Source: Candidatus Thermosaccharophagus tengchongensis (GTDB lineage: Bacteria > Armatimonadota > Fervidibacteria > Fervidibacterales > Thermosaccharophagaceae). Taken from it: 64,000 bases of DNA. This document shows, one piece after another, positions 15,404 through 34,985 of the stretch. The stretch is from NCBI GenBank assembly GCA_032161105.1, contig JAVHTD010000002.1. One strand, written 5' to 3'. A model generated the notes under the pieces. That model did no database searches. It worked only from the letters and a program-made list of their open reading frames with translations, and was not told where the DNA came from. Positions within the stretch are counted from its first letter, which is position 1. The number at the start of each line of letters is the position of its first letter. Position numbers and translations under genes: made by a program.

Positions 15404-15654
15404 AAAAGCATGACTATGGTGGTTGAGCGTTGGCGTTGTATTGCGCGTTGGTGCTATCTTGAACCACTGCAGGTTTCAATCATGAAAGTTCCAACCGCGC
15501 AGACAGTGCTCATAGGCAAAGAGTGGCGAAAGGCTTTTAGTGTGTTATCATGCTATGTCGTCAGAGGGCGTGGGAGGCAGCGAATGCAATGCATTCGCTG
15601 CAGGGCGCCTTAAGACGCCGAGATGGAATGTTAATGTGGGCTGCCTCTCTGCTG

Positions 15655-15686
15655 CCCCTCTGGCGTAGCCAGAGGGGTAATTTTTT
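15655..15686 (+). terminator. Intrinsic terminator-like hairpin in the rpsL leader (possible attenuator)
   Basis: CCCCTCTGGC-GTA-GCCAGAGGGG followed by TAATTTTTT. Confidence 0.65.
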
Positions 15687-15727
15687 GCGATGCAGAGTAT
15701 GCTTAAGCACGAGAGGGTGATTGAAGG

Positions 15728-16147
15728 ATGCCAACAATCAACCAGATAGTAAAGGGTGCCCGTAAGCCGAAGAAACATCGCACAAAGACACCGGCTCTAA
15801 AATACCGTTATAACGCTCTTAAGGGGAAGCTTATATACGACCCGCAAGGTGCGCCGATGTTGCGCGGTGTGTGCATATCGGTGCGAACCATGACGCCGAA
15901 GAAACCGAACTCGGCATTGCGCAAGATAGCAAAGGTTCGCTTAAGCAACAGGCGAGTCATCACTGCTTACATCCCGGGTGTCGGACACAATCTACAGGAG
16001 CACAGCGTTGTGCTTGTGAGGGGCGGACGAGTTAAGGACCTCCCAGGCATAAGATACAAAGTCGTTAGAGGCGCGCTTGACTGTGCCGGAGTTGAGGGGA
16101 GGAGGAAAGCCCGCTCGGTCTATGGTGCCAAGAGACCGAAATCTTAA
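15728..16147 (+). CDS. rpsL: 30S ribosomal protein S12
   Basis: [26 protein letters not shown]. Confidence 0.98.
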
Positions 16148-16183
16148 TTTGTGTTACGAATTGATGAAATGAGGTGAAATGGG

Positions 16184-16657
16184 ATGCCAAGGAGAGGACC
16201 AGTTCCGCCGAGGGAAATCCCGCCAGACCCGGTTTACGGAAGTGTGCTCATACACAAGCTCATTAACCAAATCATGCGGAAGGGCAAGAAGAGCATCGCA
16301 GAGAAAATCATGTATGGCTCGCTGTTGCTGATACATCAACGAACAAAGCGCAATCCGCTTGATGTGCTTGCTAACGCTATACGCAATGTCATGCCTGTGG
16401 TTGAAGTTCGTCCAAGGCGTGTTGGCGGTGCGACATATCAAGTGCCAATGGAAGTTCGCCCAACGAGGCGAGTCAGTTTGGCACTCCGTTGGCTTGTTCA
16501 GGCGGCGAGACAGCGCAAGGGCAGGACGATGGCTCACAGGCTTGCGGATGAAATCATTGATGCTTCTAACAATCAAGGGGGCGCAGTTAGGATAAAGGAG
16601 GAAGTGCACAGAATAGCGGAGGCAAACAGAGCATTTGCTCACTATCGTTGGTTCTAA
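16184..16657 (+). CDS. rpsG: 30S ribosomal protein S7
   Basis: [23 protein letters not shown]. Confidence 0.98.
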
Positions 16658-16670
16658 CGGTGTGATGCGT

Positions 16671-18842
16671 ATGGTAGAAGTTGATTTTGATGGCAAGTTG
16701 CCGCTTGAAATGACGAGAAATATAGGCATAGTTGCCCACATAGATGCGGGTAAGACGACCACGACCGAGAGGATACTGTTTTACACTGGTCGTGTGCACC
16801 GAATTGGGGAGGTTGACGAAGGGACTGCCACGATGGACTGGATGCAGCAGGAGAAGGAACGAGGAATCACAATAACTTCCGCAGCTACGACTTGTTATTG
16901 GAGGAGAAAAATTGGCGCCGACGAGAAAATCTACCGAATTAACATAATTGACACGCCGGGGCATGTTGACTTCACGGCGGAGGTTGAAAGGTCACTAAGA
17001 GTTCTTGATGGAGCGATTGTGATTTTATGTGGGGTTGGGGGTGTGCAACCGCAAACTGAGACAGTCTGGAGGCAGGCAAACAAGTATAATGTTCCGAGAA
17101 TCGCCTATATAAACAAACTTGACAGAAATGGTGCCGACTTTCACTCAGTTGTGCATCAAATGCGGGAGCGATTGAAATGCAAGGCGATCCTCATTCAAAT
17201 CCCGATTGGGCAAGGGGAGGACTTTGAGGGTGTCATTGATCTCATTGAATATCGGGCAATTTACTGGGATGACGAACTTGGGACAGTTATGCGTTATGAG
17301 CCTATACCCGACAGCATAGAGCCGATTGCCGAGATCTTCAGGAAAGCTTTGGTGGAATGGGTTGTGGAAACCGACGATAAATTGCTCGAAAAATACCTCG
17401 AGGAGGGGACTATTTCCTCGGAGGACTTGCGTGCAGCTATAAGAAAACAAACGCTGCGTGGCGAGATTGTTCCCGTCCTCTGCGGGGCAAGTTTGAAAAA
17501 CAGAGGTGTGCAGCCGCTGCTTGACGCCATTGTTGATTTTCTCCCATCACCGCTTGACATAGGTTTTGTTGAGGGTATGAATCCGGAAAATGGGGAGAAA
17601 GTGAGGAGAAAACTGGCAGAAGATGAACCTCTATGCGCCTTGGCTTTTAAGATCCAAACTGACCCGTATGTTGGTCGGCTAACTTACACAAGGATTTATA
17701 GCGGTGTTCTAAGAAAAGGTGACACAATTAGCAACTTTTCACGGGGATGCAGGGAGCGAGTTGCACGGATATTGCGCATGCATGCCAATTATAGGGAGGA
17801 AATTGAGGAGTGCAGGGCTGGCGATATCGTTGCCCTTGTTGGATTGCGAAATACATACACGGGAGATACGCTTGGGGCACCGGAATGCCCAATTTTGCTT
17901 GAGCGCATTGAGTTTCCAGAGCCAGTCATATTTAGGGCTGTTGAACCGAAAACGAAAGCCGAGGAAGAAAAACTTATGCAGGCACTCTTAAAATTGGTCA
18001 ATGAAGATCCGACATTGAGGCTGAGATTTGACAAAGAAACTGGTCAAACCATATTGGCTGGCATGGGAGAGCTACACCTTGAAATAGCTGAGGACAGGCT
18101 TCGCAGGGAATTTGGTGTCGTTGCTCGCTTTGGTCAACCGCAGGTTGCATATCAGGAAACCGTGTTGAATTCCGCTATTGGCGAGGGCAAGTATATTCGC
18201 CAGACTGGAGGGCGTGGGCAATATGGACATGCAATCTTGCATGTCCAGCCTTTGGAGAGGGGTAAAGGGTTAGAGTTTGAAGTTGACATTAAAGGCGGGA
18301 TAATACCGGAAGTTTTCATACCGGCGATTGAGGCTGGAGTGCGGGAGGCTGCTGATAGAGGGGTGCTTGCTGGATATCCAGTTGTGGATGTTAAGATTAC
18401 TTTAATTGGCGGTTCATATCACGAGGTTGATTCTTCGGAATATGCCTTTAAGCTTGCGGCAATGGAAGCCTTCAAAAATGCGTGTAAAAGGGCCACTTTA
18501 ACCCTTTTGGAACCCATCATGAAGCTTGAAATTGTGACGCCGAAGGAATATGTGGGAGAAGTTCTTGCAGACTTAAATGCGAGGAGGGCATCTATCAGAG
18601 GGATGAGGGAAGGCGCGGGGGAGATTATCATCGTTGATGCCGAAGTTCCATTAGCAGAGGTTTTTGGATATGCAACTCAATTGCGCTCGCTAACTCAAGG
18701 TAGGGCATCTTACACAATGGAGCCAGAGCGCTATGCACCGGTGCCTCCAGAGGTGGTTAAGCAAATTGTTCTAAAGCGCGGCTATAGCACATTTGACATT
18801 CTTCCTCATATTGAGGGAAAAACCATTGGCACGCGGGTTTAA
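16671..18842 (+). CDS. fusA: Elongation factor G (canonical)
   Basis: [34 protein letters not shown]; start approximate. Confidence 0.97.
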
Positions 18843-18859
18843 GGGGGTAAGCGTTTCAT

Positions 18860-19168
18860 ATGGCTGAGGAACGCATCCGAATTAAGTTGAAGGCATTTGA
18901 TCATAAGTTGGTGGATAAATCTGCACAGGATATTGCCAGAGTTGCCCGTGAAACTGGGGCTAAAGTGCGTGGTCCTATACCGCTCCCTACTGATAGAAAG
19001 GTTTGGTGTGTGATTAGGTCACCTTTCATTGACAAGGAATCAATGGAACATTTTGAAATGAGGATTCACAAGCGCTTGATTGACATCATTAACGCTACAG
19101 CCGAGACCATTGAGAGGTTGAGCAAACTTGATTTGCCAAGCGGAGTTGATATAGAAATCAAGCTGTAA
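18860..19168 (+). CDS. rpsJ: 30S ribosomal protein S10
   Basis: [23 protein letters not shown]. Confidence 0.98.
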
Positions 19169-19187
19169 ATTTTGGGGGTGTAAGGCG

Positions 19188-19811
19188 GTGATAAAGTCAA
19201 TAATCGGGAGAAAAGTTGGTATGACATCCATATTTACCGAAGATGGACAGCATATCCCGGTTACAGTTATTCAAGCCGGACCTTGTTATGTGGTTCAGCG
19301 AAAAGTTGTCCAAAAGGACGGGTATTCTGCGATTCAGCTCGGTTATTTGGCGATGCGCGAAAGAAAGGTGAATAAACCGTTACAAGGTCACTTCAAAAAA
19401 GCTGGATTGCCTCCAATGAAATTTTTGTGCGAGTTCCGTATACCAAATGAGGTAAATGTGGAAGTCGGGTCGGAAATAACGGTTAACTCGTTCAAGCCCG
19501 GCGATGTAGTGAAAGTTACGGGAACCTCAAAGGGTCGGGGATTTGCAGGTGTGATGAAGCGGTGGGGTATGAGTGGTCAAAGGGACTCACATGGTTCAAG
19601 GTATCATCGTCAACCAGCATCACTTGGACCGCAAGGTCCACAGCGAGTGTTCAAAGGGCATAAAATGCCGGGAAGATTTGGGGGAAAAACGGTGACTATC
19701 CGCGGGTTAACTGTTGTTGGTGTGGATCCTGAAAATCATCTTCTTCTCATAAAGGGTAGCGTTCCCGGATGGAAAGGGAGTTTGGTAAAAATTCAGGAAG
19801 ACAAGCCATAA
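19188..19811 (+). CDS. rplC: 50S ribosomal protein L3
   Basis: GRKVGMT, DGYSAIQL, SKGRGFAGVMKR. Confidence 0.97.
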   Translation: MIKSIIGRKVGMTSIFTEDGQHIPVTVIQAGPCYVVQRKVVQKDGYSAIQLGYLAMRERKVNKPLQGHFKKAGLPPMKFLCEFRIPNEVNVEVGSEITVNSFKPGDVVKVTGTSKGRGFAGVMKRWGMSGQRDSHGSRYHRQPASLGPQGPQRVFKGHKMPGRFGGKTVTIRGLTVVGVDPENHLLLIKGSVPGWKGSLVKIQEDKP

Positions 19812-19818
19812 AAGACAG

Positions 19819-20457
19819 GTGATTGGCATGGACATTCCGGTATACAATCTTGAAGGAGAGCAAGTTGGGATTTATACTATTCCTGACGAGCTGCTATCCG
19901 TCAAGATTAACAAATCTCTTGTGCACCAAGTTGTTATCTCATATCTTGCTAACATGAGGCAAGGGACACATTCAACAAAAACTCGCAAAGAAGTTAGAGG
20001 TGGGGGCAGAAAACCATGGCCGCAAAAGGGAACGGGTAGAGCAAGGCAAGGGTCTATAAGAGCCCCTCAATGGCGTGGTGGTGGCAAAGTGCATACTCCT
20101 AAGCCGCTTGATTGGGATGTAAAGATAAACAAAAACATGCGAAAGCAGGCAATAAAAATGGCGTGGATTGACAAAATAAGAAGTAACGATATAGTTTTGT
20201 TGAGCGAACTTGATTTTGAAAAGCCGAAAACAAAGCAGATGTATCGGTTGCTAAAGGCGCTTGGTTTGAGCGACAACAAAGTCCTACTTTTGATGAGGGA
20301 ATTTAACCAAAATGTTTTCCTATCGGCAAGAAACCTGCCCAATGTATTTATGCTTCCATATTATCAACCATCAGCATACGATTTGATAAATGCGCAGAAA
20401 ATTTTAACAACTTGCGATGTAATGGATAGGATAGTAAAGGAGAGGATTGCATCATGA
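19819..20457 (+). CDS. rplD: 50S ribosomal protein L4
   Basis: GGGRKPWPQKGTGRARQGS. Confidence 0.97.
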   Translation: MIGMDIPVYNLEGEQVGIYTIPDELLSVKINKSLVHQVVISYLANMRQGTHSTKTRKEVRGGGRKPWPQKGTGRARQGSIRAPQWRGGGKVHTPKPLDWDVKINKNMRKQAIKMAWIDKIRSNDIVLLSELDFEKPKTKQMYRLLKALGLSDNKVLLLMREFNQNVFLSARNLPNVFMLPYYQPSAYDLINAQKILTTCDVMDRIVKERIAS

Positions 20458-20756
20458 CAAGCATCCGGCGAGATCCATCAAATGTAGTGATACAGCCAAT
20501 ATTGACGGAAAAAAGTGCAAAGCTGGCAGCTGAGTTAAATCAGTATACATTTAAAGTGCGCTTAGATGCTACAAAGCCAGAAATTAGGCAAGCTATTGAA
20601 AAGTTATTTAATGTTGATGTTGAGTGGGTCAACACCATGATTGTAAAGGGGAAACCGCGCGGGATGAGATGGCTCAACCGAGGCAGAACATCAAGATGGA
20701 AGAAAGCGATCGTTAAGGTTAAAGAAGGGCAGAAAATAGGCATATTTGAGGTATGA
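20454..20756 (+). CDS. rplW: 50S ribosomal protein L23
   Basis: [27 protein letters not shown]. Confidence 0.96.
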
Positions 20757-20766
20757 GGTGAGGATC

Positions 20767-21630
20767 ATGCCGATAAGGCTGAAAAAACCGATCACGCCTG
20801 GACAAAGATTTATGACTGTTTCAACATTTGAAGAGATAACAAAGGATGAGCCAGAAAAATCATTGACTGAAATACTCAAGAAGCACAGTGGGCGAAATAA
20901 TCAGGGTAAAGTTACTGTCCGATTCAGAGGCGGTGGGAATAAGAGATTTTACCGCATAGTTGACTTTAAACGAGATAAGGACGGAATCCCGGCAAAAGTT
21001 ATAGCGATTGAGTATGACCCGAACAGATCGGCGAGGCTTGCATTGCTCAGATATGCTGATGGAGAAAAACGGTATATACTGTGGCCAGAAGGGGTGAAAG
21101 TGGGGGATATTTTAATGTCCGGGGAAGATGCGGAAATAAAGCCGGGGAATGCCCTACCGCTTGAGAAAATTCCGGATGGAACCTTTATTCACAACATAGA
21201 ACTTGAGCCGGGTAAAGGCGGACAGCTTGTCAGGGCTGCTGGAACCGCTGCTCAGCTTATGGCGAAGGAAGGGAAATATGCTCATATCAAACTGCCCTCT
21301 GGAGAAGTTCGGTTGATTAATGTGAAGTGCAAAGCAACAATAGGTAGAGTTGGCAATGTTGATCATGAATTGATAGTGATTGGAAAGGCTGGGCGGGCGA
21401 GACATATGGGATGGAGACCACATGTTCGAGGAAAAGCAATGAATGTTGATGATCATCCGCATGGAGGTGGCGAGGGAAAGGCACCAATAGGCATGGATGC
21501 ACCGAAATCGCCTTGGGGTTGGAAAACCCTTGGGGTCAAAACGAGAAAGGAGCGAAAACCGTCCAGTAAGTTCATAGTAAAGCGCAGAAGGGTTGGGTAT
21601 GGAGATAGAAGATTGAAAGAGCAAAGGTAA
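20767..21630 (+). CDS. rplB: 50S ribosomal protein L2
   Basis: [24 protein letters not shown]. Confidence 0.98.
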
Positions 21631-21647
21631 CTGCTGGGGGGATCATC

Positions 21648-21932
21648 ATGGGGCGTTCATTGAAAAAGGGTCCATATTGTGACCCTAAATTGCTCAAAAA
21701 AATAAGGGAAATGAACCAAACTGGCGAAAAGCGCGTCATAAAGACTTGGTCGCGGCGTTCCACGATCTTTCCCGAAATGGTTGGACACACGATTGCTGTT
21801 TATGATGGTAGGAGACACATTCCCGTATACATTACTGAAGCCATGGTTGGGCATAAACTTGGAGAATTTGCCCCAACAAGAGGGCATAGAAAGCATGGTG
21901 AGCCAACCGAACGCTCAACAGCGTTGAAATAG
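21648..21932 (+). CDS. rpsS: 30S ribosomal protein S19
   Basis: [28 protein letters not shown]. Confidence 0.98.
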
Positions 21933-21962
21933 CCCATAAGGTGTGGAAAGAGGGATTGAACT

Positions 21963-22304
21963 ATGGAAGTTAGAAGCGTTGGACGATATATAAGAGTTTC
22001 GCCAAGGAAAGCCAGAAGAGTAGCGTGCTTAGTCAAGGGAAAGCGGGTTGATGAGGCGTTAAACATTCTCTTAACAATTCCATCAAAGCCTGCAAGGTAT
22101 ATTCATAAGCTCCTCAAGTGTGCCGTAGGAAATGCTGAAAATGACTACGAACTGGATAGGGAAAGCCTGTATGTGAAGAATGTAATTGTTGACCAAGGTC
22201 CAATGCTGAAAAGGTGGATACCGAGGGCTCGCGGCAGGGCGGACATGATTCGCAAGCGCACAAGTCATATAACTGTCATAATTCAATCCATTGGTGAAGA
22301 TTAG
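21963..22304 (+). CDS. rplV: 50S ribosomal protein L22
   Basis: [21 protein letters not shown]. Confidence 0.97.
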
Positions 22305-22318
22305 CGGGGGGTAATGTG

Positions 22319-23062
22319 ATGGGGCAAAAAGTCAACCCAATAGGGCTAAGAATAGGCGTAAATAAGGAATGGCTAAGTAAGTGGTTTGCTGATAAACAAT
22401 ATCAAGAATATTTGCAAGAAGATTTAAAAATCCGAAATCACATTAAGAAAAAGTTAAAGGATGCTGGCATCCCAAGGATTGAAATTGAGCGAAAATCAAG
22501 GCTTGTCATCGTAACAATTTATGCTGCCCGACCGGGGATGGTTATTGGACATAGGGGGAGAGGAGTTGAGGAGTTGAAAAAAGAGCTTGAGGAGATGACG
22601 GGGCGTGAGATGCATATAACCGTCAAAGAGGTGGAGAACCCGGAGCTTGAAGCTCAACTTGTTGCGGAAAATATAGCTCAACAGATTGAGAGGCGCGTCT
22701 CGTGGCGTAGAGCAATGCGCCAGGCGATATTGAGGTCCATGAGCGCTGGTGCACAAGGCATAAAGGTGATTGTCAGTGGGAGACTTGGTGGAGCCGAACT
22801 TGCACGGGACGAAAGCTTGATGGATGGAAAAGTTCCGCTGCACACATTGAGAGCGGATATTGACTATGGCTTTAGTGAGGCGAAAACAAAATATGGCATG
22901 ATAGGGGTGCATGTGTGGATTTATCGCGGTGATATCATAGAAAAAGCTGAGGAACGCTTGGTGCTTGCGGCGAGGGCTGGGAAGCCAATAGCGCCCAGAC
23001 TCCTCGTCGCAGCCACTGAACTTGAGGAGGAGGCAGAAGATGTTACAGCCGAGGAGGCGTAA
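22319..23062 (+). CDS. rpsC: 30S ribosomal protein S3
   Basis: [30 protein letters not shown]; acidic C-terminal tail. Confidence 0.98.
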
Positions 23063-23462
23063 ATATCGCAAGGAACAACGCGGGGCATGTAGAGGGAAAG
23101 CCACAAGGACAAACACGATCGTAAATGGTGAATTTGCCATTCAAGCGCTCGAGCCGGGCTGGGTTACGGCTCGGCAGATAGAGGCTGCGAGGGTGGCAAT
23201 TGCTAACTATGTTCGCAGGGAGGCAAAAGTGTGGATTCGTATTTTCCCATATAAACCTGTGACAAAAAAGCCATTAGAAAGCCGAATGGGTGGCGGCAAG
23301 GGCGACCCGGAGGAGTATGTGGCTGTTGTTAAGCGCGGCACTGTGTTGTTTGAGATTGGGGGAATTAGTGCCGATGTAGCCGTGGAAGCTCTGAGGAGAG
23401 CCTCGCATAAGTTGCCGATAAAAACCCGTATTATTTCGAGAGAGGTGCTTCCGCATGCCTGA
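23040..23462 (+). CDS. rplP: 50S ribosomal protein L16
   Basis: MLQP, RQIEAAR, RMGGGKG, HKLPIK. Confidence 0.97.
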
Positions 23463-23676
23463 AGAGAAGCGCCGAGAACAGTTGCAGAATCTTAGACAGC
23501 TTTCCCTTAACGAGCTTTTGAAAGAGCTTGAGGAAACCAGAAAAGAGTTGTTTATGACAAGAGCTCAAGTTGCAACTTTCAGCCAAACTAATGTCGCTCG
23601 AATCAGAATGCTAAAGCGAAAGGTGGCACGCATTCTTACAATTTTGAGGGAAAGGGAATTGCTCGGAATTGAGTAG
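23455..23676 (+). CDS. rpmC: 50S ribosomal protein L29
   Basis: [23 protein letters not shown]; position after rplP. Confidence 0.92.
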
Positions 23677-23728
23677 GACTCCCCAAAAGTTAAGGATAAC
23701 TTATCCAAGTTGGGAGGAGGAGAAACTG

Positions 23729-24091
23729 ATGGAAATTGAGCGAGGAAAGAGGAAGAAGCGAATTGGTGTGGTTGTAAGCGATAAAATGGACAAAACGGTC
23801 GTTATAATGGTAGAAAGGCTCGTGAGGCATCCTTTGTATAAAAAAGTTTTGCGCAGGCGGAAAAAATATTATGCTCACGATGAAAACAATGAGTGCCGCA
23901 TCGGGGATGTCGTGGAAATTATGGAAACAAGACCTTTAAGCAAGCTGAAAAGGTGGCGTGTAGTTCGCATAATTGAGAGGGCAAAGGTGGCTGCACCGAT
24001 GCCTGCATATGAAGCTAAAGAGGTTGAGGAAGTGGCAGTAACACCACCGGAGCTTTTGGAAGAGCAAAAACTTGAAACTCAGGAGGGGTGA
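23729..24091 (+). CDS. rpsQ: 30S ribosomal protein S17 with acidic C-terminal extension
   Basis: [38 protein letters not shown] before the ATG at 23729. Confidence 0.96.
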
Positions 24092-24098
24092 GAGTTTT

Positions 24099-26183
24099 AT
24101 GGATCTGATAGAGCCTGAAGCGATTAGGAATGTGGCTTTAATTGGTCAAGGTGGGTCTGGAAAAACTTCTTTGGCGGATGCCATTTTATGGGTTACTAAC
24201 ATGGTTGACAGGCAGGGAAAAGTGGAGAGGGGGACGAGCGTTTTTGATTATGAAGAGGATGAAAAGCAAAGGCAGCACAGTATAAATCTCGCCATTGGAC
24301 ATTGCAATTGGCGTGGGCATTTGATTAACATAATTGACACTCCAGGTGGAATTGATTTTGTCGGAGATGCATATGCAGCCTTGCGCGCTGTAGATGGGGT
24401 AGTTCTCGTCTTGGATGCCGGAGAGGGGCTTGAATTTCAAGCGGAGAAATTGTGGGCGAAGGCGGGTGAATATGGACTTACAAGGTTAATCTTTATGACA
24501 AAGCTGGACAGCGATAAAGCCGATTTTGAGAATCTTTTGTCCCAAGCCGGCGAAAAGCTTGCAACCAAGATTGTCCCTCTAACTTTGCCGCTCGGTGAGC
24601 GATCCGAGCACAGGGGTGTTATTGATGTTATATCTCAAAAAGCGTTTACATTTACGGAGAGGGGCGAACCGTTAGAATGCGAAATTCCGGGAGATATGTC
24701 GGAAAAGCTGGCGAAGTATTGGGAGGAAGTTGTTGAAGTTGCTGCGGAAAGTAATGACGAGTTACTTGAGAAATATGTTGAAGGGCATGAATTGACGAAG
24801 GCGGAAATTATGCAAGGTTTCACAAGAGCTGTGATGTCTGGGGCAGCATCACCAGTTTTATGCGGCTCGGGTGCCAAATGCACTGGGATTCCGTTCCTTC
24901 TCGATTCCATCATCAACTTTATCCCTTCCCCTGTTCAGCGTCCATCAATTGAGGCTAAGACGCCCGGGGATGGGAAGGTGGTTAACATAATTCCCGACCC
25001 AAATAAGCCTCTTGCAGCTTTGGTTTTCAAAACGGTGACTGACCCTTATGTTGGGCGCATCAATTACTTTCGCGTATTTTCCGGGACAATATCGTCAGAT
25101 TCTGTCGTGTTTAATGCTAACGAAGGAAGGCGTGAGCGTGTGGGGCAACTCTTTGTTCCTCAGGGTAAAAGCATTGAGTCAATAGGGGTGGCTTGCACAG
25201 GGCAAATAGCAGCAGTTACTAAGTTGGAAGTTACACGAACAGGTCACACGCTTTGTGACGAATCTCATGCGGTGTTGCTACCACCGATAGAGTTCCCAAC
25301 TCCTGTAATGGAACTGGCAGTTCATCCCAAAACAAGGGGTGATGAAGACAAGCTCCTCAGCGGTTTGCAAAGGTTGCAAGAGGAAGACGGGGCATTTAAG
25401 TGGTTCAGGAATAACGAAACTGGCGAGACGATAATTGCCGGTTTGGGAGACTTACATCTTGAAGTTGCAGTTGAGCGCTTAAGGCGGAAGTTTGGCGCTA
25501 ATGTTGAGGTCGTTTTGCCAAAGATACCGTATAAAGAGACCATCCGGAAGAAGGGGAGAGGTGAAGGAAGATATATCCGTCAGACTGGTGGCAGAGGGCA
25601 ATACGGCGTAGTGTGGCTTGAGGTTGAGCCACTTGAGCGCGGAGAAGGGTTTGAGTTCGTTGATGCCATAGTTGGCGGTGTGATACCGAGTAAGTTCATC
25701 CCATCGGTTGAAAAGGGCGTCGTTGAGGCTATGCAGCATGGAGTTCTCGCCGGTTATCCAGTTGTGGATGTGAAAGTTACATTGTTTGATGGCAAGCATC
25801 ATGAAGTTGATTCGTCCGACATAGCTTTCAAAAATGCCGGAGCTATCGCATTTCGCAATGTGATATCACAATGTGATCCTTACCTGCTTGAACCAATCAT
25901 GGAAGTTGAGATAATAGTGCCAGAGGAGAATATGGGCGATATAATTGGAGATTTAAACGGGAAAAGGGGGAGAATACTTGGGATAGAATCCATAGACGGA
26001 ATGCAGAAAATACACGCTTTGGTTCCACTCGCCGAAATGCAGAGGTATGCAACCACTCTGAGATCGCTGACCAGAGGGCGCGGGCAATATTCAATGAAGT
26101 TCTCACACTATGAAGAAGTTCCTCCACACATTGCTGAGAGGATAATTGAAGAGGCGAGGAGAAAAGCAAGTGAGCAGAAGTAG
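24099..26183 (+). CDS. Second elongation factor G paralog (EF-G2/EF-G-like), divergent G domain
   Basis: Full five-domain EF-G ([30 protein letters not shown]), but the G motifs read [19 protein letters not shown] and TKLD. Confidence 0.93.
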
Positions 26184-26206
26184 CAAAAGTAAAGGGGTTG
26201 AGTGGT

Positions 26207-26575
26207 ATGATAATGCCGCAGACAAGGCTAAAAGTTGCCGATAACTCTGGAGCAAGAGAGATTATGTGCATTAGAGTTTTGAGGGGCAGAAGTGCAAGAT
26301 ACGGTAACATAGGTGATGTCATTGTTGCCTCAGTTAAAGATGCCGTCCCCGGTGCAGCGGTTTCTCAAGGGGATGTTGTGAAAGCCGTGATTGTGAGAAC
26401 CAAGTATGGAATTAGGCGCCCAGATGGCTCATACTTGCGATTTGACGAAAATGCAGCTGTTATAATAGACCACCAGAATAACCCGATTGGAACAAGGGTG
26501 TTTGGGCCTGTTGCAAGGGAGTTGAGGGATAAACAGTTTCTCAAAATAGTCTCGCTTGCGCCAGAAGTCGTATGA
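26207..26575 (+). CDS. rplN: 50S ribosomal protein L14
   Basis: [32 protein letters not shown]. Confidence 0.98.
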
Positions 26576-26585
26576 GGTGAGTGGA

Positions 26586-26918
26586 ATGCCAAGTATGGGG
26601 ATAAAAACCGGTGATACAGTAATTGTAATTTCAGGTGTTGACAAAGGCAAGAGAGGAAGAGTAATAAAGGCGATGCCAAGAGAGGGTAAAGTGGTTGTTG
26701 AGGGTGTCAATTTGAGGTGGAAACATCAGCGCTTTCAGAGGACAAGGACTTTGCAAGTTCAAAGTGGGAGAATACAGATCCCTATGCCAATACCGAGAAG
26801 CAAAGTCATGCTCGTCTGTCCGCATTGTGACCGTCCAACTCGCATCAGAAAAGTTTTCACTGCTGATGGGAGAAAGGTTAGGGCGTGCAAAAAATGCAGC
26901 GAATTGATTGATGAATGA
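26586..26918 (+). CDS. rplX: 50S ribosomal protein L24
   Basis: KTGDTVIVISGVDKGK KOW motif, VVVEGVN, CPHC...CKKC. Confidence 0.96.
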   Translation: MPSMGIKTGDTVIVISGVDKGKRGRVIKAMPREGKVVVEGVNLRWKHQRFQRTRTLQVQSGRIQIPMPIPRSKVMLVCPHCDRPTRIRKVFTADGRKVRACKKCSELIDE

Positions 26919-26932
26919 CAGGGTGAGCGGAG

Positions 26933-27496
26933 ATGGCGGAAGAGTATAAGCCAAGATTGAAGGAAAAATGGGAAAAAGAGGTTGTGCCCCTCTTGATGAA
27001 GCAATTTGGCTATAAAAATATCATGCAGGTTCCAAAGCCGATCAAGGTGACAATCAATGTTGGCGTTGGTGATGCTAAAGATGATGCAAAGTATTTGGAT
27101 TCCACGATGAAGGAATTGGCGATGATAACTGGGCAAAAGCCAGCATTAAGAAGGGCTAAACGGTCAATTGCCGGATTTAAGTTAAGAAAGGGTCAACCAG
27201 TCGGCTGTGTTGTGACACTGAGACGAGCCAGAATGTGGGAGTTCCTTGACAGACTAATCAATGCAGCTTTGCCAAGAATTCGGGATTTTAAGGGTTTGCC
27301 TCAGGATGCCTTTGATGGGCATGGCAACTATAACTTGGGAGTTGAAGAGCAATTGATTTTCCCCGAACTTAGTTATGACGATATTGCGAAAGTGAGAGGC
27401 ATGAATATCACTATAGTCACAAGCGCAAAGACAGATGAGGAAGCGTTAGCGCTATTGAAAGCCCTTGGTATGCCATTCCGAAATGGAGGAAGGTGA
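26933..27496 (+). CDS. rplE: 50S ribosomal protein L5
   Basis: [28 protein letters not shown]. Confidence 0.98.
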
Positions 27497-27500
27497 TAAG

Positions 27501-27686
27501 ATGCCCAGGAAAGCACTGATTGTCAAGGCGCAAAAAGAGCCAAAATTTAAGGTGAGAAAGGTCAACCGTTGCCAAAGATGTGGGCGTGCGAGGGCTTATT
27601 TTCGCAAGTTTGGGCTCTGTAGAATATGCCTTCGGCAGCTGGCAAGTCAAGGTTTGATACCGGGAGTTAAGAAGGCAAGTTGGTAG
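27501..27686 (+). CDS. rpsN: 30S ribosomal protein S14, Zn-binding type
   Basis: RCQRCGR...GLCRIC.R...PGVKKASW. Confidence 0.96.
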
Positions 27687-27712
27687 GAACGAAAGTGGGG
27701 TGAATCTATGAA

Positions 27713-28111
27713 ATGCCAGTTACTGATCCAATTGCTGACATGTTAATTCAAATTAAAAATGCAGCACAAGCAAAACTTAATAGGGTGCGGATACCTGCAT
27801 CAAATGTTAAACGAGAAATTGCCAGAGTTTTGAAGGAGAACGGATATATTTCGGATTACAAACTTGTCCGAGGCAGGAAACAGGGGATCTTGATCATATA
27901 CCTCCGTTACATTAACGGGAAAAAACCCGTTATAACTGGGGTTAAAAGGGTGAGCAAACCTGGCAGGCGAATTTATGTTAAGGCAAGCGAGATACCGAGG
28001 GTGCAGGATGGCTTTGGCATTGCTATACTTTCGACTTCACAGGGGATAATGTCTGACATTGAGGCGAGAAAGAAGAAAATTGGTGGGGAAGTTTTGGCGT
28101 ATGTATGGTGA
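27713..28111 (+). CDS. rpsH: 30S ribosomal protein S8
   Basis: TDPIADML, SKPGRRIY, STSQG, GGEVL. Confidence 0.98.
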   Translation: MPVTDPIADMLIQIKNAAQAKLNRVRIPASNVKREIARVLKENGYISDYKLVRGRKQGILIIYLRYINGKKPVITGVKRVSKPGRRIYVKASEIPRVQDGFGIAILSTSQGIMSDIEARKKKIGGEVLAYVW

Positions 28112-28126
28112 CCGGGAGGGGTAAAA

Positions 28127-28702
28127 ATGTCAAGAATTGGGAGAAAACCGATAATAATACCGGATGGGGTAAAAGTGCAGGTGAATGGAAGCACAGTAAT
28201 TGTTGAAGGTCCGAAGGGAAAGCTTGAGCAAAGTTTTCATCCAGACATGATAATTCGCAAGGATAATGGTCAAATAATTGTAGAGCGACCTTCTGACAAC
28301 CGTTTTCATAGATCGCTACACGGCTTGACAAGAACTTTGATAGCTAACATGGTTGAGGGGGTAACACAGGGTTTCCAAAAGGTGCTTGAGGTCAGAGGTA
28401 TGGGCTATAGGGCTGAATTAATTGGACCAAATAAATTGAGATTGCACCTCGGTTTTTCGCATCCCGTTCATTTTGAGGCTCCGGATGGAATAACTTTTGA
28501 AGTGGAATCCTTCACCCCAACACAACAAAATCAATACCTTGCAGCCAAAATAACTGTGAAAGGTATTGATAAACAGCTTGTAGGTGATGTTGCGGCAAGA
28601 ATAAGAATGCTGAGGAAGGTTGAGCCATATAAAGGTAAAGGTATAAGATATGCTGATGAATTTGTTCGCTTAAAGCCAGGTAAGCAGGTAAAAAGTAAGT
28701 AA
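28127..28702 (+). CDS. rplF: 50S ribosomal protein L6
   Basis: [22 protein letters not shown]. Confidence 0.98.
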
Positions 28703-28718
28703 TGAGGTGCTAAGAATT

Positions 28719-29090
28719 ATGGCAGTCAAGTATGAAACGAGAAGTGAACGGAGGAAAAGGAGGCATTGGCGTATACGAAAAAAGATTTTTGGGACACCTG
28801 AGAGACCAAGATTGGCGGTTTTTGGCAGCTTAAACCATATTTATGCTCAAGTGATCGACGATACAAAGGGGCACACCATTGTATCAGCATCAACCCTTGA
28901 CAAAGAAATATCAGGCAAGGTTAAACATACTGGGAATGTGGAAGCTGCAAAGCTTGTCGGACAGCTCATAGCAAAAAGAGCCCTTGAAAAGGGCATAAAG
29001 ACGGTTGTGTTTGATAGGGGAGGACATGCATATCACGGTCGCGTTAAAGCGCTTGCTGAGGCTGCAAGGGAAGCGGGATTGGAATTTTAG
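28719..29090 (+). CDS. rplR: 50S ribosomal protein L18
   Basis: [25 protein letters not shown]. Confidence 0.97.
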
Positions 29091-29107
29091 AAAGGGGAGG
29101 AAAAAAC

Positions 29108-29761
29108 ATGGATTTGCAAATGGAAGAAAGAGAGGTGCAATACGAGGAAAGGGTTGTTGAAATAAGGCGCGTTTCAAAAACTCACAAAGGTGGGAAAAGA
29201 CTCTCATTTCGGGCACTTGTAGTGGTCGGCGATGGGAAAGGCAGAGTTGGGGCGGCGATTGGAAAGGCATTAACAGTCCCTGAAGCAGTTCGAAAGGCTT
29301 ATGAAAAGGCATGCAAGGAGATGATAAGCATTCCATTAGTCGGAGATACAATTCCGCATGAAGTTATTGGTAAAGCTTGCACGACTAAGGTGCTTTTAAA
29401 ACCGGCAGGGGCTGGAACAGGAGTTATTGCAAGCAGTCCGGTGAGAGCAGTGATGGATGTCTTAGGAGTTAAAAATGTGCTGACAAAAACATTTGGCTCA
29501 AGAAATAAAGTGAATACTGTATGGGCTACTATTGAAGCATTGAAGCAGCTGCGCTCACCAACAGAAGTAGCGGAGGCACGCGGTGTTAGGTTACAGGATC
29601 TTCCAATTCCCGCAAAGATAAGGAGGAGGCTCATTGAGGATGAATTGGCAATGCGACAAGCCGCACGCGAAGTATTTGAAGCTTCGCTTGAAGAAAAGCC
29701 TGATAGGCTATCCGAAGGATCAGAAAGCAACAGCGAAGGCGCTTGGGTTGACAAGGATTAA
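29108..29761 (+). CDS. rpsE: 30S ribosomal protein S5 with long C-terminal extension overlapping rpmD
   Basis: [26 protein letters not shown]. Confidence 0.96.
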
Positions 29762-29861
29762 TCGCACGGTTATAAAGCCGAATAACCCCAGTGTTCGTGG
29801 TATGGTTAGAAAGATTCAACATTTGCTCGATGTTGAGGAGATTAATGTTGCACAGGAGTGA
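29640..29861 (+). CDS. rpmD: 50S ribosomal protein L30
   Basis: KSLIG.PKDQKAT.KALGL...[19 protein letters not shown] at 29621-29629. Confidence 0.9.
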
Positions 29862-29867
29862 TGTGGT

Positions 29868-30329
29868 GTGTTAAAGTTAAGTTCTCTTAAGCCAGCATTT
29901 GGCGCAAAGAAAAAACGAAAGCGAGTTGGCAGGGGAATAGCTGCAGGGCAGGGCAAAACTTGCGGTCGTGGGACAAAGGGACAGAAGGCGAGGGAAAATG
30001 TCCCACCATGGTTTGAGGGTGGTCAGACTCCGTTATACAAGCGTGTGCCAAAGTTGCGCGGTGAATCAAAGAAAGCTATGCCGAAGGAGCCGTTCCGAAA
30101 AAACTATGTTTTTGTCAATTTGAAGCAACTTGAGCGCTTTCCGCCAAACACTGAGGTAACGCCTCAGCTCCTGTTAAGTGAGGGTATAATTGACGAGATT
30201 GGCGATGGAGTGCGCATTCTTGGTGAAGGGGAGATAACTAAGCCATTAATAGTCAAAGCTCATCACTTCAGTGAATCTGCCAGGAGAAAAATAGAGATGG
30301 CTGGCGGGAAAGTTGAGGTGATTAAGTAG
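29868..30329 (+). CDS. rplO: 50S ribosomal protein L15
   Basis: [30 protein letters not shown]. Confidence 0.97.
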
Positions 30330-31669
30330 TGCGCCTGCTTGAAAATGTTAAATCGGCGTTAAAACTCCCAGATTTGCGCGCAAGAGTGTTATTTGTATTT
30401 GCAATGTTCGCCATCTACGCGTTTGGAGCACATGTGCCGGTTCCGGGTGTTGATACAAAGGCTTTAAATGAAGCTTTCGCCCAAGGATTTGGCGGTGGAT
30501 TGTTGAGATTGATTAACCTCTTTTCCGGGGGCGCTCTCAAAAGGTTTTCCATATTTGCGCTTGGCATAATGCCATATATAAATGCATCAATAATAATGCA
30601 GTTGCTCGCAGTTGCCATACCATCAATTGAGCAATGGCAAAAGGAAGGGGAATGGGGCAGAAGAAGAATAGCCAAGTTGACAAGGATACTTACGCTTGTT
30701 TCATCCGTTCTGCAGGCGTGGGGGTTCTTGTTCATTTTCCAGCAAACTGGGGCAATAAGGGATGTCCACTTGCTCAATTTAAACAACTGGCGCATTGTGC
30801 TAACCCTTGCGGCTGGGACAGCCGCATTAATGTGGATGGGTGAATTGATAACAGAGAAGGGTGTCGGAAATGGTGTCTCTTTGATAATATTTGCCGGAAT
30901 TATGATGCGACTGCCAACGGATGTCGCCCAAGTCTATGGATTGCTTGCATCTCGTTCTGTTGAGTGGATGAATGTGATCGTTTTATTCGGCTTTTTCCTG
31001 TTAACAGTGATGTTTATTGTCTTTGTGCAGCAGGGGGAGAGGCGCATCCCTGTGCAGTATACACGCAGAGTGATTGGGACAAGAATGATGGGCAGGACAA
31101 GCCATTTACCGCTGCGTGTGAATACAGCCGGAGTTATACCTATAATCTTCGCAATATCGGTGGCTATGTTTCCCGGCACTTTGACATCCATGATCCCGAT
31201 TTTTAAGCCTGGAACGGAGATAACATTGCCACTTTTGGGCAAAATTGATATGGGCTCAATTGGCGCTCGCATACGGGAAATTTTCTACCCGGGCAGCAGC
31301 AATATCGGTTTGTTTCTTTACTTCTTGCTCGTCATTGCCTTCACATATTTTTACACGGCTGTTGTCTTTAATCCGTCGGATTTAGCCGATAATCTGCGTA
31401 AATGGGGTGGTGTCATTCCGGGTGTCAGACCGGGTGCACCCACAGTGCATTATATTGACAGGGTGCTGTCAAGAATAACCTTTGGAGGGGCAATGTTCCT
31501 CGGCATAATTGCAATCCTTGAGTTTCTTGTCCCTCACTGGACAGGGTTGCCTTTGTATGACATTGCCGGTGGGACTTCCATTTTGATTGTGGTTGGGGTC
31601 GCTCTTGAGACAATGCTTCAGCTTGAAGCGCAATTGTTGTCTCGGCAGTATGAACGATTGATAAGGTGA
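30329..31669 (+). CDS. secY: Preprotein translocase subunit SecY
   Basis: SIFALGIMPYINASII, GVGNGVSL, AGVIPIIFA, IPGVRPG, GGTSILIVVGV. Confidence 0.98.
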   Translation: MRLLENVKSALKLPDLRARVLFVFAMFAIYAFGAHVPVPGVDTKALNEAFAQGFGGGLLRLINLFSGGALKRFSIFALGIMPYINASIIMQLLAVAIPSIEQWQKEGEWGRRRIAKLTRILTLVSSVLQAWGFLFIFQQTGAIRDVHLLNLNNWRIVLTLAAGTAALMWMGELITEKGVGNGVSLIIFAGIMMRLPTDVAQVYGLLASRSVEWMNVIVLFGFFLLTVMFIVFVQQGERRIPVQYTRRVIGTRMMGRTSHLPLRVNTAGVIPIIFAISVAMFPGTLTSMIPIFKPGTEITLPLLGKIDMGSIGARIREIFYPGSSNIGLFLYFLLVIAFTYFYTAVVFNPSDLADNLRKWGGVIPGVRPGAPTVHYIDRVLSRITFGGAMFLGIIAILEFLVPHWTGLPLYDIAGGTSILIVVGVALETMLQLEAQLLSRQYERLIR

Positions 31670-31676
31670 TTTTGCA

Positions 31677-32342
31677 GTGATTAATCTCATTTTTCTTGGA
31701 CCGCCGGGGTCGGGAAAAGGAACACAGGCATCTATTATCGCTCGCAAATATAATCTGCTCCATCTCGCTACCGGAGACATATTTCGTGACGAAATTCAAC
31801 GGGGAACCAAACTGGGCAGGGAAGTTGAGGGATACCTGAAAAGGGGGGAACTCGTTCCAGATCATCTGACTGTAGAGGCGCTCAAATCAAGGCTGGAAAT
31901 TGGGTTAAGTTCGGGAAAAGATGGGTTTGTTCTGGATGGCTTTCCCAGGACAGATAATCAGGCGAAAGAACTTGACAATTTGCTGAATCGAATGAATCTC
32001 ACATTAACAGCTGTTTTGTTAATTGATGTAGATGAAAGTGAAATTATTCAACGCCTATCCGGGAGAAGAATTTGCCAAAGTTGTGGCTCTGTCTACCACA
32101 TAATTCACAATCCGCCAAAGGTGGACGAAATATGCGATTTATGTGGCGAGAAGCTCGTTCAAAGGGAGGATGATAAACCCGAAATTATCAAAAGGAGACT
32201 GGAAGTTTACCATGAGCAAACGAAACCTGTTATGCTGTATTATGCGGGAAAAGGGCTTTTATATCGTGTAGATGGATCCGGCAGTGTTGAGGAAGTTGAG
32301 CAGAGGATTGAAGAGATTCTGGGTTCATTGAAGAGGGCTTAA
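31677..32342 (+). CDS. adk: Adenylate kinase (Zn-lid type)
   Basis: GPPGSGKGTQ, LDGFPR, lid CQSC...CDLC. Confidence 0.97.
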   Translation: MINLIFLGPPGSGKGTQASIIARKYNLLHLATGDIFRDEIQRGTKLGREVEGYLKRGELVPDHLTVEALKSRLEIGLSSGKDGFVLDGFPRTDNQAKELDNLLNRMNLTLTAVLLIDVDESEIIQRLSGRRICQSCGSVYHIIHNPPKVDEICDLCGEKLVQREDDKPEIIKRRLEVYHEQTKPVMLYYAGKGLLYRVDGSGSVEEVEQRIEEILGSLKRA

Positions 32343-32345
32343 AGA

Positions 32346-33155
32346 ATGCGGCGTATGCTTTGGAAAAAGGGCATAATTTTGAAAGGGGAAGAGGAAATCA
32401 AAAAAATGCGAATTGCTGGCATGATAGTTTACGGGGCATTGAGGGAGATGGCAATGGCTATCCAACCCGGAATAACTCCACTTTACTTGGACAAATTGGC
32501 GGAGAATTATATAAGGAGATGTGGCGCAATTCCTTCGTTTCTCGGTTATAAGGGGTATCCAGCGTCAACATGTATAGCAGTGAACGAGCAAGTTGTCCAC
32601 GCGATACCAAATGATAGACCGCTGAAAGAGGGTGATGTTGTGGGGTTGGATGTGGCTGCATGTTGGGATGGATATCACGCAGACGCAGCAATAACAGTCA
32701 CTGTTGGGAGGGTGAGCGAAATTCACAAAAATTTGGTAAAAACTGCGGCAAAAGCTCTATGGATTGGGATAAAGGAAGCTTCGCCTGGGAAACCACTCTC
32801 CCGCATCGGTGCTGCGATACAAAATTATGTTGAAACAAGGGGTTTTCATGTGGTTCGTGATTTGGTCGGGCATGGCATCGGAAAAAATTTGCATGAGAAG
32901 CCGGAAGTTCCGCACTACTTTACAAAAATGTTGGATGATATTACCCTTGTCCCCGGAATGACATTTTGTATAGAACCAATGGTAAATGTCGGGACATGTG
33001 AAGTGGCATATCTAAGCGATGGATGGACTGTAGTAACGGCTGATGGCAGCTATTCGGCTCATTTTGAGCATACAATTGCTATTACGAGAGAAGGAGTTGC
33101 AATATTGACGCTTGGTCCAAACGATGAAGATGATTTGTGGCGTGTTGAAGATTGA
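32346..33155 (+). CDS. map: Methionine aminopeptidase type I
   Basis: VVHAIP, DGYHAD, GHGIG..LHE, IEPM, SAHFEHT. Confidence 0.96.
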   Translation: MRRMLWKKGIILKGEEEIKKMRIAGMIVYGALREMAMAIQPGITPLYLDKLAENYIRRCGAIPSFLGYKGYPASTCIAVNEQVVHAIPNDRPLKEGDVVGLDVAACWDGYHADAAITVTVGRVSEIHKNLVKTAAKALWIGIKEASPGKPLSRIGAAIQNYVETRGFHVVRDLVGHGIGKNLHEKPEVPHYFTKMLDDITLVPGMTFCIEPMVNVGTCEVAYLSDGWTVVTADGSYSAHFEHTIAITREGVAILTLGPNDEDDLWRVED

Positions 33156-33167
33156 GGTGATATTACT

Positions 33168-33383
33168 ATGCCAAGAGAAAAGTTGGAAGTTGAGGGAGTT
33201 GTTAAAGAATGTCTGCCAAATGCGGTGTTTCGTGTAGAGATTGAGGGTGGACATGAAATTTTGGCGCACATTTCCGGGAAGATCAGGGTTCATTTCATTC
33301 GGATAGTTCCGGGGGACAGGGTGAAGGTAGAAATCTCGCCATATGACCCCAAAAGAGGCAGAATAATATACCGACTGAAGTGA
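33168..33383 (+). CDS. infA: Translation initiation factor IF-1
   Basis: LPNA.F.V, AHISGK, GDRVKVE.SPYD...GRI.YR. Confidence 0.97.
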
Positions 33384-33402
33384 GCGGTTTGAGGTGAGTT
33401 GT

Positions 33403-33519
33403 ATGAAAGTTAGACCATCAATAAAGCGGATATGCGACAAGTGCAAAATAGTTCGTAGGAAAGGGAAGTATTATGTAATTTGCGAAAATCCGAAGCATAA
33501 GCAAAGGCAGGGCAAGTAG
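33403..33519 (+). CDS. rpmJ: 50S ribosomal protein L36 (absent from the ORF track; read directly)
   Basis: [38 protein letters not shown], Zn-ribbon form; GAGGTG SD upstream. Confidence 0.96.
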
Positions 33520-33532
33520 GGGGTGATAGCAG

Positions 33533-33910
33533 ATGGCTCGTGTAGCTGGTGTTGAGATACCCGATAATAAGCGCGTGGAAATTGCGTTAACATACATATA
33601 CGGAATCGGGAGGTCAACAAGCCAAAAGATATTGACAGAAACCGGTATTTCATGGGATAAACGCGTCAAAGACCTCACAGACGAGGAACTCGCTCGAATA
33701 AGGGATTACATTGACCGAAACTTGATAGTTGAGGGAGATCTCAGAAGGAAGGTTGCAGAAGATATAAAACGGCTAATAGACATACGATGCTATCGTGGGT
33801 TAAGGCATCTTAGAGGTTTGCCCGTTAGGGGGCAAAGGACTCGCACAAATGCTCGCACTCGTAAAGGTCCGCGCAAGACAGTTGGTGCTAAGAAAGGCAG
33901 GAGGAAGTAA
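33533..33910 (+). CDS. rpsM: 30S ribosomal protein S13
   Basis: [33 protein letters not shown]. Confidence 0.98.
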
Positions 33911-33933
33911 CAAAATATCGGGAGGTATGCCAA

Positions 33934-34320
33934 ATGGCTCGTAAAGGTGGACGCTCAAGACCAAAGCGCAGAGGAGTTACCAATGCAATTGCGCATATCC
34001 AATCAACTTTCAATAACACGATTATCACGATAACTGATTTAGAGGGCAATACATTGTGTTGGGCAAGTAGTGGCACTGTCGGATTTAAGGGAACGAAGAA
34101 AGGGACACCATTTGCGGCCCAAATGGCTGCACAGGCTGCCGGCAGGCGAGCATTAGATATGGGGGTTAAAAACCTGCAAGTTTATGTGAAGGGTCCCGGT
34201 GCTGGGCGAGAGACGGCAGTTAGAGCCCTTGAATCTCTCGGTTTTAGGATTGAATTCGTCAAGGATATAACGCCGGTTCCTCACGATGGGTGTCGTCCTG
34301 CAGGGAGACGAAGGGTATAA
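33934..34320 (+). CDS. rpsK: 30S ribosomal protein S11
   Basis: STFNNTI, TPFAAQ, GPGAGRE, PH.GCRP. Confidence 0.98.
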
Positions 34321-34343
34321 TCCTCCGAATGTGGTGATGAGTA

Positions 34344-34985
34344 ATGGGCAGATACATTGGACCTGTATGTAGGCTTTGTCGCCGTGAGGGAATAAAACTG
34401 TTCTTGAAGGGGAACAAATGTTTGACGAAGTGCACCCTTGAAAAGCGCCCGTATCCCCCCGGAATTAACCCAGAATTGAGGAGGGTCAAAAAACCGACGG
34501 ATTACGGGCTTAGATTGAGAGAGAAGCAAAAGGCCAAGCGCATTTATGGAATGACAGAAGTCCAGTTTAAGCGGTTCTATGAAATGGCAGAGAAATTGGC
34601 AAAAAAGACGAGGGGGCTTGTAGGGGAGTGTTTGCTTCAATTCCTTGAAAGGCGTTTGGATAATGTCGTATATCGTCTGGGTTTTGCCCTTTCAAGAAGG
34701 CATGCGAGGCAGCTTGTAAGGCACAGACATGTCCTTGTCAATGATAAAGTTGTTGACATTCCCTCATACATCGTTGATGTCGGGGATGTCATAAAAATAA
34801 GGGATAAAAGCAGGGATATCCCGGAAATTCAGGAGGCAATAGAGATGACCGGCAGTTGGTCAATTCCGGCATGGCTGTCAAGAGATGTAAGCACCTATGA
34901 AGGGCGTGTTTTGGCGCTTCCGACGAGGGATCAAATAGATGTCCCAGTCAACGAGCAGCTTATTGTTGAGTTTTATTCCCGTTAG
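34344..34985 (+). CDS. rpsD: 30S ribosomal protein S4 (Zn-binding type)
   Basis: [34 protein letters not shown]. Confidence 0.98.

Follow-up and report, generated by a model that had tools for sequence, protein, structure and literature searches.

What is a second elongation factor G (EF-G) doing inside a ribosomal protein operon, between rpsQ and rplN, when a canonical fusA lies in the same cluster and the newcomer lacks the catalytic His of switch II? The question is raised by a gene in the 64,000-nt window of contig JAVHTD010000002.1, that is, the whole stretch of DNA that was analyzed, to whose positions all coordinates below refer.

The paralog and its locus

The features on which our analyses rest are the following.

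24099..26183, plus strand: EFG II-type EF-G paralog, 694 aa, stop-free translation, five domains, switch II DTPGG
24348..24350, plus strand: GGA codon of Gly84, at the place of the catalytic switch-II His
24081..24088, plus strand: Shine-Dalgarno-like AGGAGGGG, within the end of rpsQ, 10 nt upstream of the paralog ATG
23729..24091, plus strand: rpsQ (S17, 120 aa, with a C-terminal extension; NF004123, 126 bits), TGA at 24089-24091
26207..26575, plus strand: rplN (L14; TIGR01067, 180.6 bits), ATG at 26207
16635..18842, plus strand: canonical fusA (EFG I) of the str operon, after rpsL-rpsG (TIGR00484, 1002 bits, residues 21-715)
18860..19168, plus strand: rpsJ (S10), 17 nt past fusA

The first-pass annotation had described a complete second EF-G, with a Shine-Dalgarno sequence of its own, placed tightly between rpsQ and rplN in an operon without tuf, and each of these points was borne out. 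Seven nucleotides separate the rpsQ stop codon from the paralog ATG (24099), 23 nt separate its TAG stop codon (26181-26183) from the ATG of rplN, and the Shine-Dalgarno-like sequence listed above precedes its start. The cluster has the order rpsL, rpsG, fusA, rpsJ ... rplP, rpmC, rpsQ, paralog, rplN, rplX, rplE, rpsN(Z), rpsH ... rplO, secY, adk, map, infA, and is otherwise an ordinary str-S10-spc arrangement. No tuf lies between fusA (end 18842) and rpsJ (start 18860); the sole tuf of the genome is on another contig (L032 1265-2703), where it follows a tRNA-Asn and has a radical-SAM gene and a hydrolase gene as its neighbors. Among other Armatimonadota, tuf follows fusA in three genomes that have no paralog embedded in the spc cluster (G024, G039 and G031; loci L117, L137 and L126, respectively), and it does not follow fusA in G040, which has the S17/L14 arrangement.

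All five EF-G domains were identified in the paralog by Pfam (GTP_EFTU, EF-G_D2, EFG_III, EFG_IV and EFG_C), its sequence matched solved EF-G structures at E = 1e-197, and its AlphaFold2 model (pLDDT 91.8) has a TM of 0.95 to the ribosome-bound EF-G 7n2v. The whole genome has exactly two EF-G genes, the paralog and fusA, whose products are 41% identical over 688 columns. The paralog passes the cut-offs of two NCBIfam models for elongation factor G (TIGR00484, 727.8 bits with a cut-off of 659.4; NF009381, 893.9 bits with a cut-off of 583), and automatic annotation would name it simply elongation factor G. It scores under the curated cut-offs of the model for elongation factor G-like protein EF-G2 (NF009377, 662.6 bits; cut-off 890) and of EFG2_Bacteroid (NF058620, 550.1 bits; cut-off 1000). 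A tetracycline ribosomal protection protein was ruled out as its identity (NF012153, 287.2 bits; cut-off 775).

A scan with Rfam of positions 15000-36000 at gathering thresholds produced no match, and in positions 15000-34900 terminator- and promoter-like sites were no more frequent than in shuffled sequences, none of them flanking or isolating the paralog. The G+C content of the ribosomal protein cluster (16000-40000) is 0.42-0.48, compared to 0.50-0.56 in its flanks, with a strongly positive GC skew; that of the paralog, 0.47, is in line with the cluster. Other details of the locus concern its neighbors. Only residues 8-79 of S17 match the 72-position bacterial model, and a Glu/Pro/Ala-rich C-terminal tail of ~40 aa precedes the start of the paralog. 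Compared to TIGR00484 (match 21-715 of 735), the fusA open reading frame has ~20 surplus residues at either end, and its beginning overlaps the end of rpsG, the real start probably lying somewhat downstream. S14 (27465-27686) is of the short zinc-type form (type Z).

Assignment to the EFG II subfamily

The EFG II subfamily is known, and was defined by Margus, Remm and Tenson in 2011 (PMC3150367, accessible text) by a Gly that starts G1, a conserved Leu after the P-loop and a G2 in which RGITI is lost and Ser replaces Thr, with DxPG, NKxD and SAx conserved. The initial Gly of G1, the Leu after GKTS and, in G2 (RQHSI), the Ser that replaces the Mg-binding Thr were all found in the paralog; of the conserved motifs, DTPG is present, G4 reads TKLD and G5 reads GSGA. 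A further mark of the subfamily is a gene that lies away from the str operon while the genome also encodes an EFG I, and here the paralog lies outside that operon and fusA follows rpsL-rpsG. A family phylogeny, which the first-pass annotation had proposed, gave a concordant result. In a tree of 86 EF-G rows (LG+G4), in which the EFG II references of the 2011 paper were represented by named second EF-Gs from Bacillota and other phyla, the 14 His-bearing copies of the str operon were separated from all 72 His-less copies, the paralog included, with an SH-aLRT of 100. Trees restricted to the G domain or to domains IV-V reproduced this split, with support of 100 and 97, respectively. As the domain IV loop motifs look EFG I-like, a chimera with domains IV-V copied from fusA was considered, and was rejected because both partial trees give the same split and the one for domains IV-V puts the paralog on the EFG II side. 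Judged by these sequence comparisons, the paralog is a member of the known EFG II subfamily, for which loss of the switch-II His is the norm.

Comparison of the two EF-Gs of the window shows how far their G domains differ, the paralog and fusA reading GQGGSGKTS and AHIDAGKTT in G1, RQHSI and RGITI in G2, DTPGG and DTPGH in G3, and TKLD and NKLD in G4. The domain IV loops, including the IRQTGG of loop 1 and HEVDSS, are retained in the paralog. These motifs, and the Gly codon at 24348-24350, read as they had been given in the first-pass annotation. Its statement that every G motif is deviant stands as far as the deviations are concerned, but not as a peculiarity of this gene, since loss of the His, like most of the other deviations, is the EFG II norm. 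A search of a 5.8-billion-protein collection found the residue after DxPG never to be His among the 119 closest homologs listed (49-90% identity); it was Gly in four proteins, all of the paralog's own family, Leu in Fervidibacter, and Tyr, Phe, Ala or Asp in other phyla. By genome, Gly occupies the place of the switch-II His in 4/4 of the own family, and Leu does so at 18/18 loci of the sister family. The P-loop His is kept in 58 of the 61 other EFG II rows of our motif table and is lost in the paralog's own order, with Gln in the paralog itself. From these alignments, the features that are specific to the lineage are only the Gly at the place of the His, the P-loop Gln and the Thr of G4. In some Fervidibacter paralogs (L006 and L012), G4 is NKVE or NKIE rather than NKxD, the guanine-specifying Asp having become Glu.

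Placement across the Armatimonadota

To place the gene in context, its position was compared both beyond and within the phylum. In Bacteroides thetaiotaomicron, carbon starvation induces the EF-G2, whose gene lies apart from those of ribosomal proteins. The first-pass annotation had held such a location to be the usual one for EF-G2-type genes, and this was upheld by a public scan, limited to the best 80 of at least 600 matches, in which none of the 45 His-less copies of other phyla lay near any of 11 probed ribosomal protein genes, the probe covering up to 6 kb per side and some contigs being short. Among the same best 80, all 29 DTPGH copies followed rpsL-rpsG. Within the Armatimonadota, 41 genomes were surveyed, with the following outcome.

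Own family (4 genomes): S17-paralog-L14 in 4/4
Sister family (20 genomes): loci obtained from 18, with S17 upstream in 18/18 and L14 downstream in 17/18 (one contig ends); the fragmentary G015 and G022 were left out
Other families (17 genomes): S17-paralog-L14 in four (G025, G035, G037, G040)
Other families, continued: L5-paralog-S14 in eight (G027, G028, G029, G030, G032, G033, G036, G038)
Other families, continued: paralog elsewhere in three (G024, G026, G039) and absent in two (G031, G034)
Armatimonadota loci of the public scan (L070, L107): paralog elsewhere, counted in the 39 given below

Hence 34 of the 39 EFG II genes of the Armatimonadota sample lie within the S10-spc cluster, in either the S17/L14 or the L5/S14 slot. 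The first-pass annotation had left room for the placement being both widespread and described; the former holds in the Armatimonadota, yet no description was found in the literature searched. Being widespread in the phylum at two alternative slots, the placement is an inherited trait of a large clade. The spacing is also similar throughout the genus, with gaps of 5-7 nt upstream and 13-23 nt downstream of the paralog in 4/4 genomes.

The deep nodes of the paralog gene tree lack resolution. With 34 rows, constraining the S17/L14 copies to be monophyletic cost 0.48 log-likelihood units (AU p = 0.50), forcing both slots together gave an AU p of 0.11, and forcing all Armatimonadota copies together gave an AU p of 0.055. 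These values are compatible with one ancient insertion and a later shift of slot. Two genomes have longer intervals between the paralog and rplN: a 663-nt internally repeated sequence in G008, of the Fervidibacter family (L016 3550-4212), with identical peptide-like words turning up in several frames, and a gap of 319 nt in the second (L017).

Selection within the genus

Rates of substitution were calculated for six genome pairs within the genus, using the same pairs for the paralog and for fusA.

dN/dS, whole gene: paralog 0.036-0.063, fusA 0.029-0.049
dN, domains II-V: paralog 0.014-0.094, fusA 0.021-0.164
dN, G domain: paralog 0.040-0.245, fusA 0.027-0.125

The paralog is under strong purifying selection within the genus, and its dN/dS of 0.04-0.06 rules out a decaying duplicate. 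The constraint is distributed differently in the two genes, as domains II-V are slower in the paralog than in fusA in 6/6 pairs and the G domain is faster in 6/6, by a factor of 1.5 to 3. Even so, the dN/dS of about 0.05-0.11 for the G domain of the paralog denotes purifying selection there as well.

Expression in Fervidibacter sacchari

Four hot-spring metatranscriptome runs searched for positions 15400-30400 gave 10 reads, all from one run and none on the paralog, which are too few to test expression. Published data for Fervidibacter sacchari are more informative. The accessible part of the supplement of that study (PMC11535203, file 3) contains two proteins named elongation factor G, WP_259101055.1, which by accession order lies between S7 and S10, and WP_259101076.1, which is called fusA2 in Supplementary Data 7. 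Based on accession order and on there being only two EF-G genes in each of the 18 sister-family genomes with loci, we infer that fusA2 is the ortholog of the S17/L14 paralog. The member lists of ten Fervidibacter clusters do not contain WP_259101076.1, so that its link to the S17/L14 gene stays putative, and the putative ortholog is only ~57% identical to the paralog and has Leu rather than Gly.

In those data, mRNA levels of fusA2 and fusA are similar (baseMean 4023 and 4413, respectively) and, over eight substrates, fusA2 mRNA values correlate with those of fusA (r = 0.98) and rplN (r = 0.92) (PMC11535203). The label-free log2 protein averages are 24.0 for EF-Tu, 21.55 for fusA2, 19.71 for S10, 19.22 for EF-G, 18.98 for L14 and 18.69 for S7, and the fusA2 protein is 2.8-8.9 times as abundant as EF-G, label-free intensities being a rough measure of copy number (PMC11535203). 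Its level is flat over five substrates (adjusted p 0.92), and it stands at about row 31-33 of the proteome sheet, which is in descending order in the six rows checked (PMC11535203). The G-10 metaproteome of 254 proteins in the same source includes fusA2, and the canonical EF-G accession is absent from it. The main text of the paper nowhere contains "elongation factor" or "fusA" (PMC11535203). Of the co-expression with ribosomal proteins suggested in the first-pass annotation, expression at the level of ribosomal proteins is therefore what these published values support, and they do so indirectly, through the relative.

Function of the paralog

On balance, we think it probable that the paralog is a GTP-binding, hydrolysis-poor EF-G that docks on the ribosome in the manner of EF-G and is constitutively at work alongside fusA. 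We favor this reading because its catalytic site is more stripped than that of any studied EFG II protein, because the ribosome-facing domains are its most constrained part, and because the putative F. sacchari ortholog is more abundant, and steadier in level, than a stress brake should be. If the paralog is transcribed within the S10-spc ribosomal protein cluster, as its position suggests, its synthesis would be constitutive and would roughly keep pace with that of ribosomes. Its G domain is predicted still to bind GTP-Mg, the P-loop GKT, switch-I Ser, DxPG and xKxD being retained. The residues that appear to be lost are ones used by canonical EF-G in ribosome-stimulated hydrolysis, with the switch-II His replaced by Gly and the P-loop His and Asp by Gln and Gly, respectively, so GTP hydrolysis should be slow or absent. 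Since domains II-V depart little from the canonical form and evolve slowly, and since the tip loops of domain IV are intact, docking at the A site like that of EF-G would be expected. The docked paralog may then promote or stabilize translocation by its binding energy, with canonical fusA presumably alongside and available where fast GTP turnover is needed.

Such a mechanism has experimental parallels. Single-molecule work, in the accessible text of PMC12775393, indicates that it is the binding of EF-G and not hydrolysis that drives unwinding and mRNA movement. Hydrolysis is required for release of EF-G, and H92A EF-G supports multi-turnover translocation with release taking tens of seconds; the same text cites a Bacteroides EF-G paralog as translocating without GTP hydrolysis (PMC12775393). 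Against the favored reading, the purifying selection on the G domain would equally fit a working enzyme, and the report that EF-G-2 of Thermus, an EFG II protein, is a GTPase means that a His-less factor is not by that token GTPase-less. A more far-reaching version, which we regard as possible but doubtful, is that in the Fervidibacteria and their kin a His-less EFG II is the principal translocase, acting without or nearly without hydrolysis at 65-85 C, and that fusA serves mainly hydrolysis-dependent steps such as RRF-dependent recycling. The paralog would then be made with the ribosomal proteins and in several-fold excess over EF-G, and the division of labor would be reversed relative to every studied bacterium.

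The stress or hibernation role raised in the first-pass annotation is a poor fit with the constitutive high abundance in F. sacchari. A related explanation is that the paralog, like the EF-G2 of Mycobacterium smegmatis, is a ribosome-parking or translation-slowing factor, which binds non-rotated post-translocation ribosomes without hydrolysis and damps or protects translation. The best solved match of its G domain is indeed that protein (9k0z), which has been described as lacking ribosome-dependent GTPase activity and trapping post-translocated ribosomes under stress (preprint 10.64898/2026.05.25.727771, accessible text). We nevertheless judge this explanation rather unlikely, as the putative F. 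sacchari ortholog is constitutive and exceeds EF-G 2.8-8.9 times during growth, a dose at which a brake would be costly, and as the paralog has canonical domain IV loops (HEVDSS) and domains II-V under tighter constraint than those of fusA.

It is unlikely, to a further degree, that the paralog is a fully active GTPase with another catalytic arrangement and serves as a second ordinary translocase. The precedent is Thermus EF-G-2, whose intrinsic GTPase activity is reported to be higher, and poly(Phe) synthesis slightly lower, than that of EF-G (PMC3150367), and retention of the P-loop Lys and Thr, switch-I Ser, DxPG and xKxD, together with a G domain dN/dS of about 0.1, would agree with it. 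However, Gly84 has no side chain to position a water molecule, the P-loop His kept in nearly all other EFG II rows (58/61) is lost in the own order, NKxE replaces NKxD in some copies of the sister family, and the G domain outpaces that of fusA in evolution by a factor of 1.5 to 3. In addition, of the three EFG II proteins that have been studied, two, the EF-G2s of M. smegmatis and Bacteroides, are described as lacking ribosome-dependent GTPase activity, the latter in the title of its paper (Han et al. 2023).

Least probable of all is a role outside elongation, in the recycling, assembly or quality control of ribosomes, with the factor being synthesized along with every batch of ribosomal proteins: although embedding in the ribosomal protein cluster at two alternative slots across the phylum is in its favor and specialized recycling paralogs are known in spirochaetes and mitochondria (EF-G2; cited in PMC12172202), those paralogs fall in other subfamilies, spdEFG and mitochondrial (PMC3150367), the M. 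smegmatis EF-G2 has no recycling activity and splitting in Escherichia coli requires GTP hydrolysis (both according to the accessible text of preprint 10.64898/2026.05.25.727771), and an abundance above that of EF-G better suits a task performed once per codon than once per ribosome.

Significance

The EFG II-type paralogs are widespread, and only three have been studied, with conflicting outcomes: an active GTPase, a stress brake and a starvation translocase. Our results reveal that such a paralog has become fixed in a whole phylum-level lineage, within the most highly conserved bacterial operon, that in one order the catalytic site has been stripped further, to Leu or Gly, and that in the only cultured member the putative ortholog exceeds EF-G in abundance during ordinary growth. 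Three findings are undescribed in the literature that we found: that the paralog is embedded in the S10-spc cluster across the phylum, in one of two slots, that Gly or Leu can take the place of the His, and that the putative ortholog dominates over EF-G in a cultured relative. If the paralog translocates without hydrolysis, it would represent natural, routine GTP-sparing elongation in a hyperthermophile, and would bear directly on the long debate over the purpose of GTP hydrolysis by EF-G. As F. sacchari is cultivable, the question is testable.

Comparison with known systems

The closest known system is the EFG II subfamily itself, whose members are likewise second EF-Gs beside a str-operon EFG I, with domain IV conserved and domains I-III diverged (PMC3150367). 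The paralog differs from EFG II in having Gly after DxPG, where EFG II has Tyr or Phe, in the Gln at the 'h' position of its P-loop and the TKLD of its G4, and in an EFG I-like IRQTGG in loop 1 of domain IV, compared to KKQ[TS]GG. It also sits in the S10-spc cluster, whereas the accessible text of that paper gives a genome context for EFG I only, in the str operon (PMC3150367).

Among individual proteins, the EF-G2 of M. smegmatis (PDB 9K0Z/9K10) is the top solved match to the G domain of the paralog, at 109 bits. Its motifs are GPSGGGKT, QQRSV, DTPGY and TKLD, and it shares with the paralog TKLD, a His-less switch II and the Ser of G2. At full length, the paralog is closer to Thermus EF-G (661 bits) than to 9k0z (499 bits). 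The two also differ in setting, as the paralog sits in a ribosomal protein cluster and its putative F. sacchari ortholog is constitutive and abundant, whereas the mycobacterial protein is reported to be stress-specific and non-essential for growth (10.64898/2026.05.25.727771). The EF-G2 of Bacteroides thetaiotaomicron (PDB 7UVP/8DMF), said to be a GTPase-free translocase in the title of its paper (Han et al. 2023) and cited as such (PMC12775393), resembles the paralog in fold (TM 0.84) but is only 33% identical to it, and the Bacteroides model NF058620 scores the paralog at 550 bits against its cut-off of 1000. Lastly, EF-G-2 of Thermus thermophilus (PDB 1WDT/2DY1) is an EFG II protein of solved structure that matches the paralog at full length with 510 bits and in fold with a TM of 0.80, and it differs in being reported as an active GTPase (PMC3150367).
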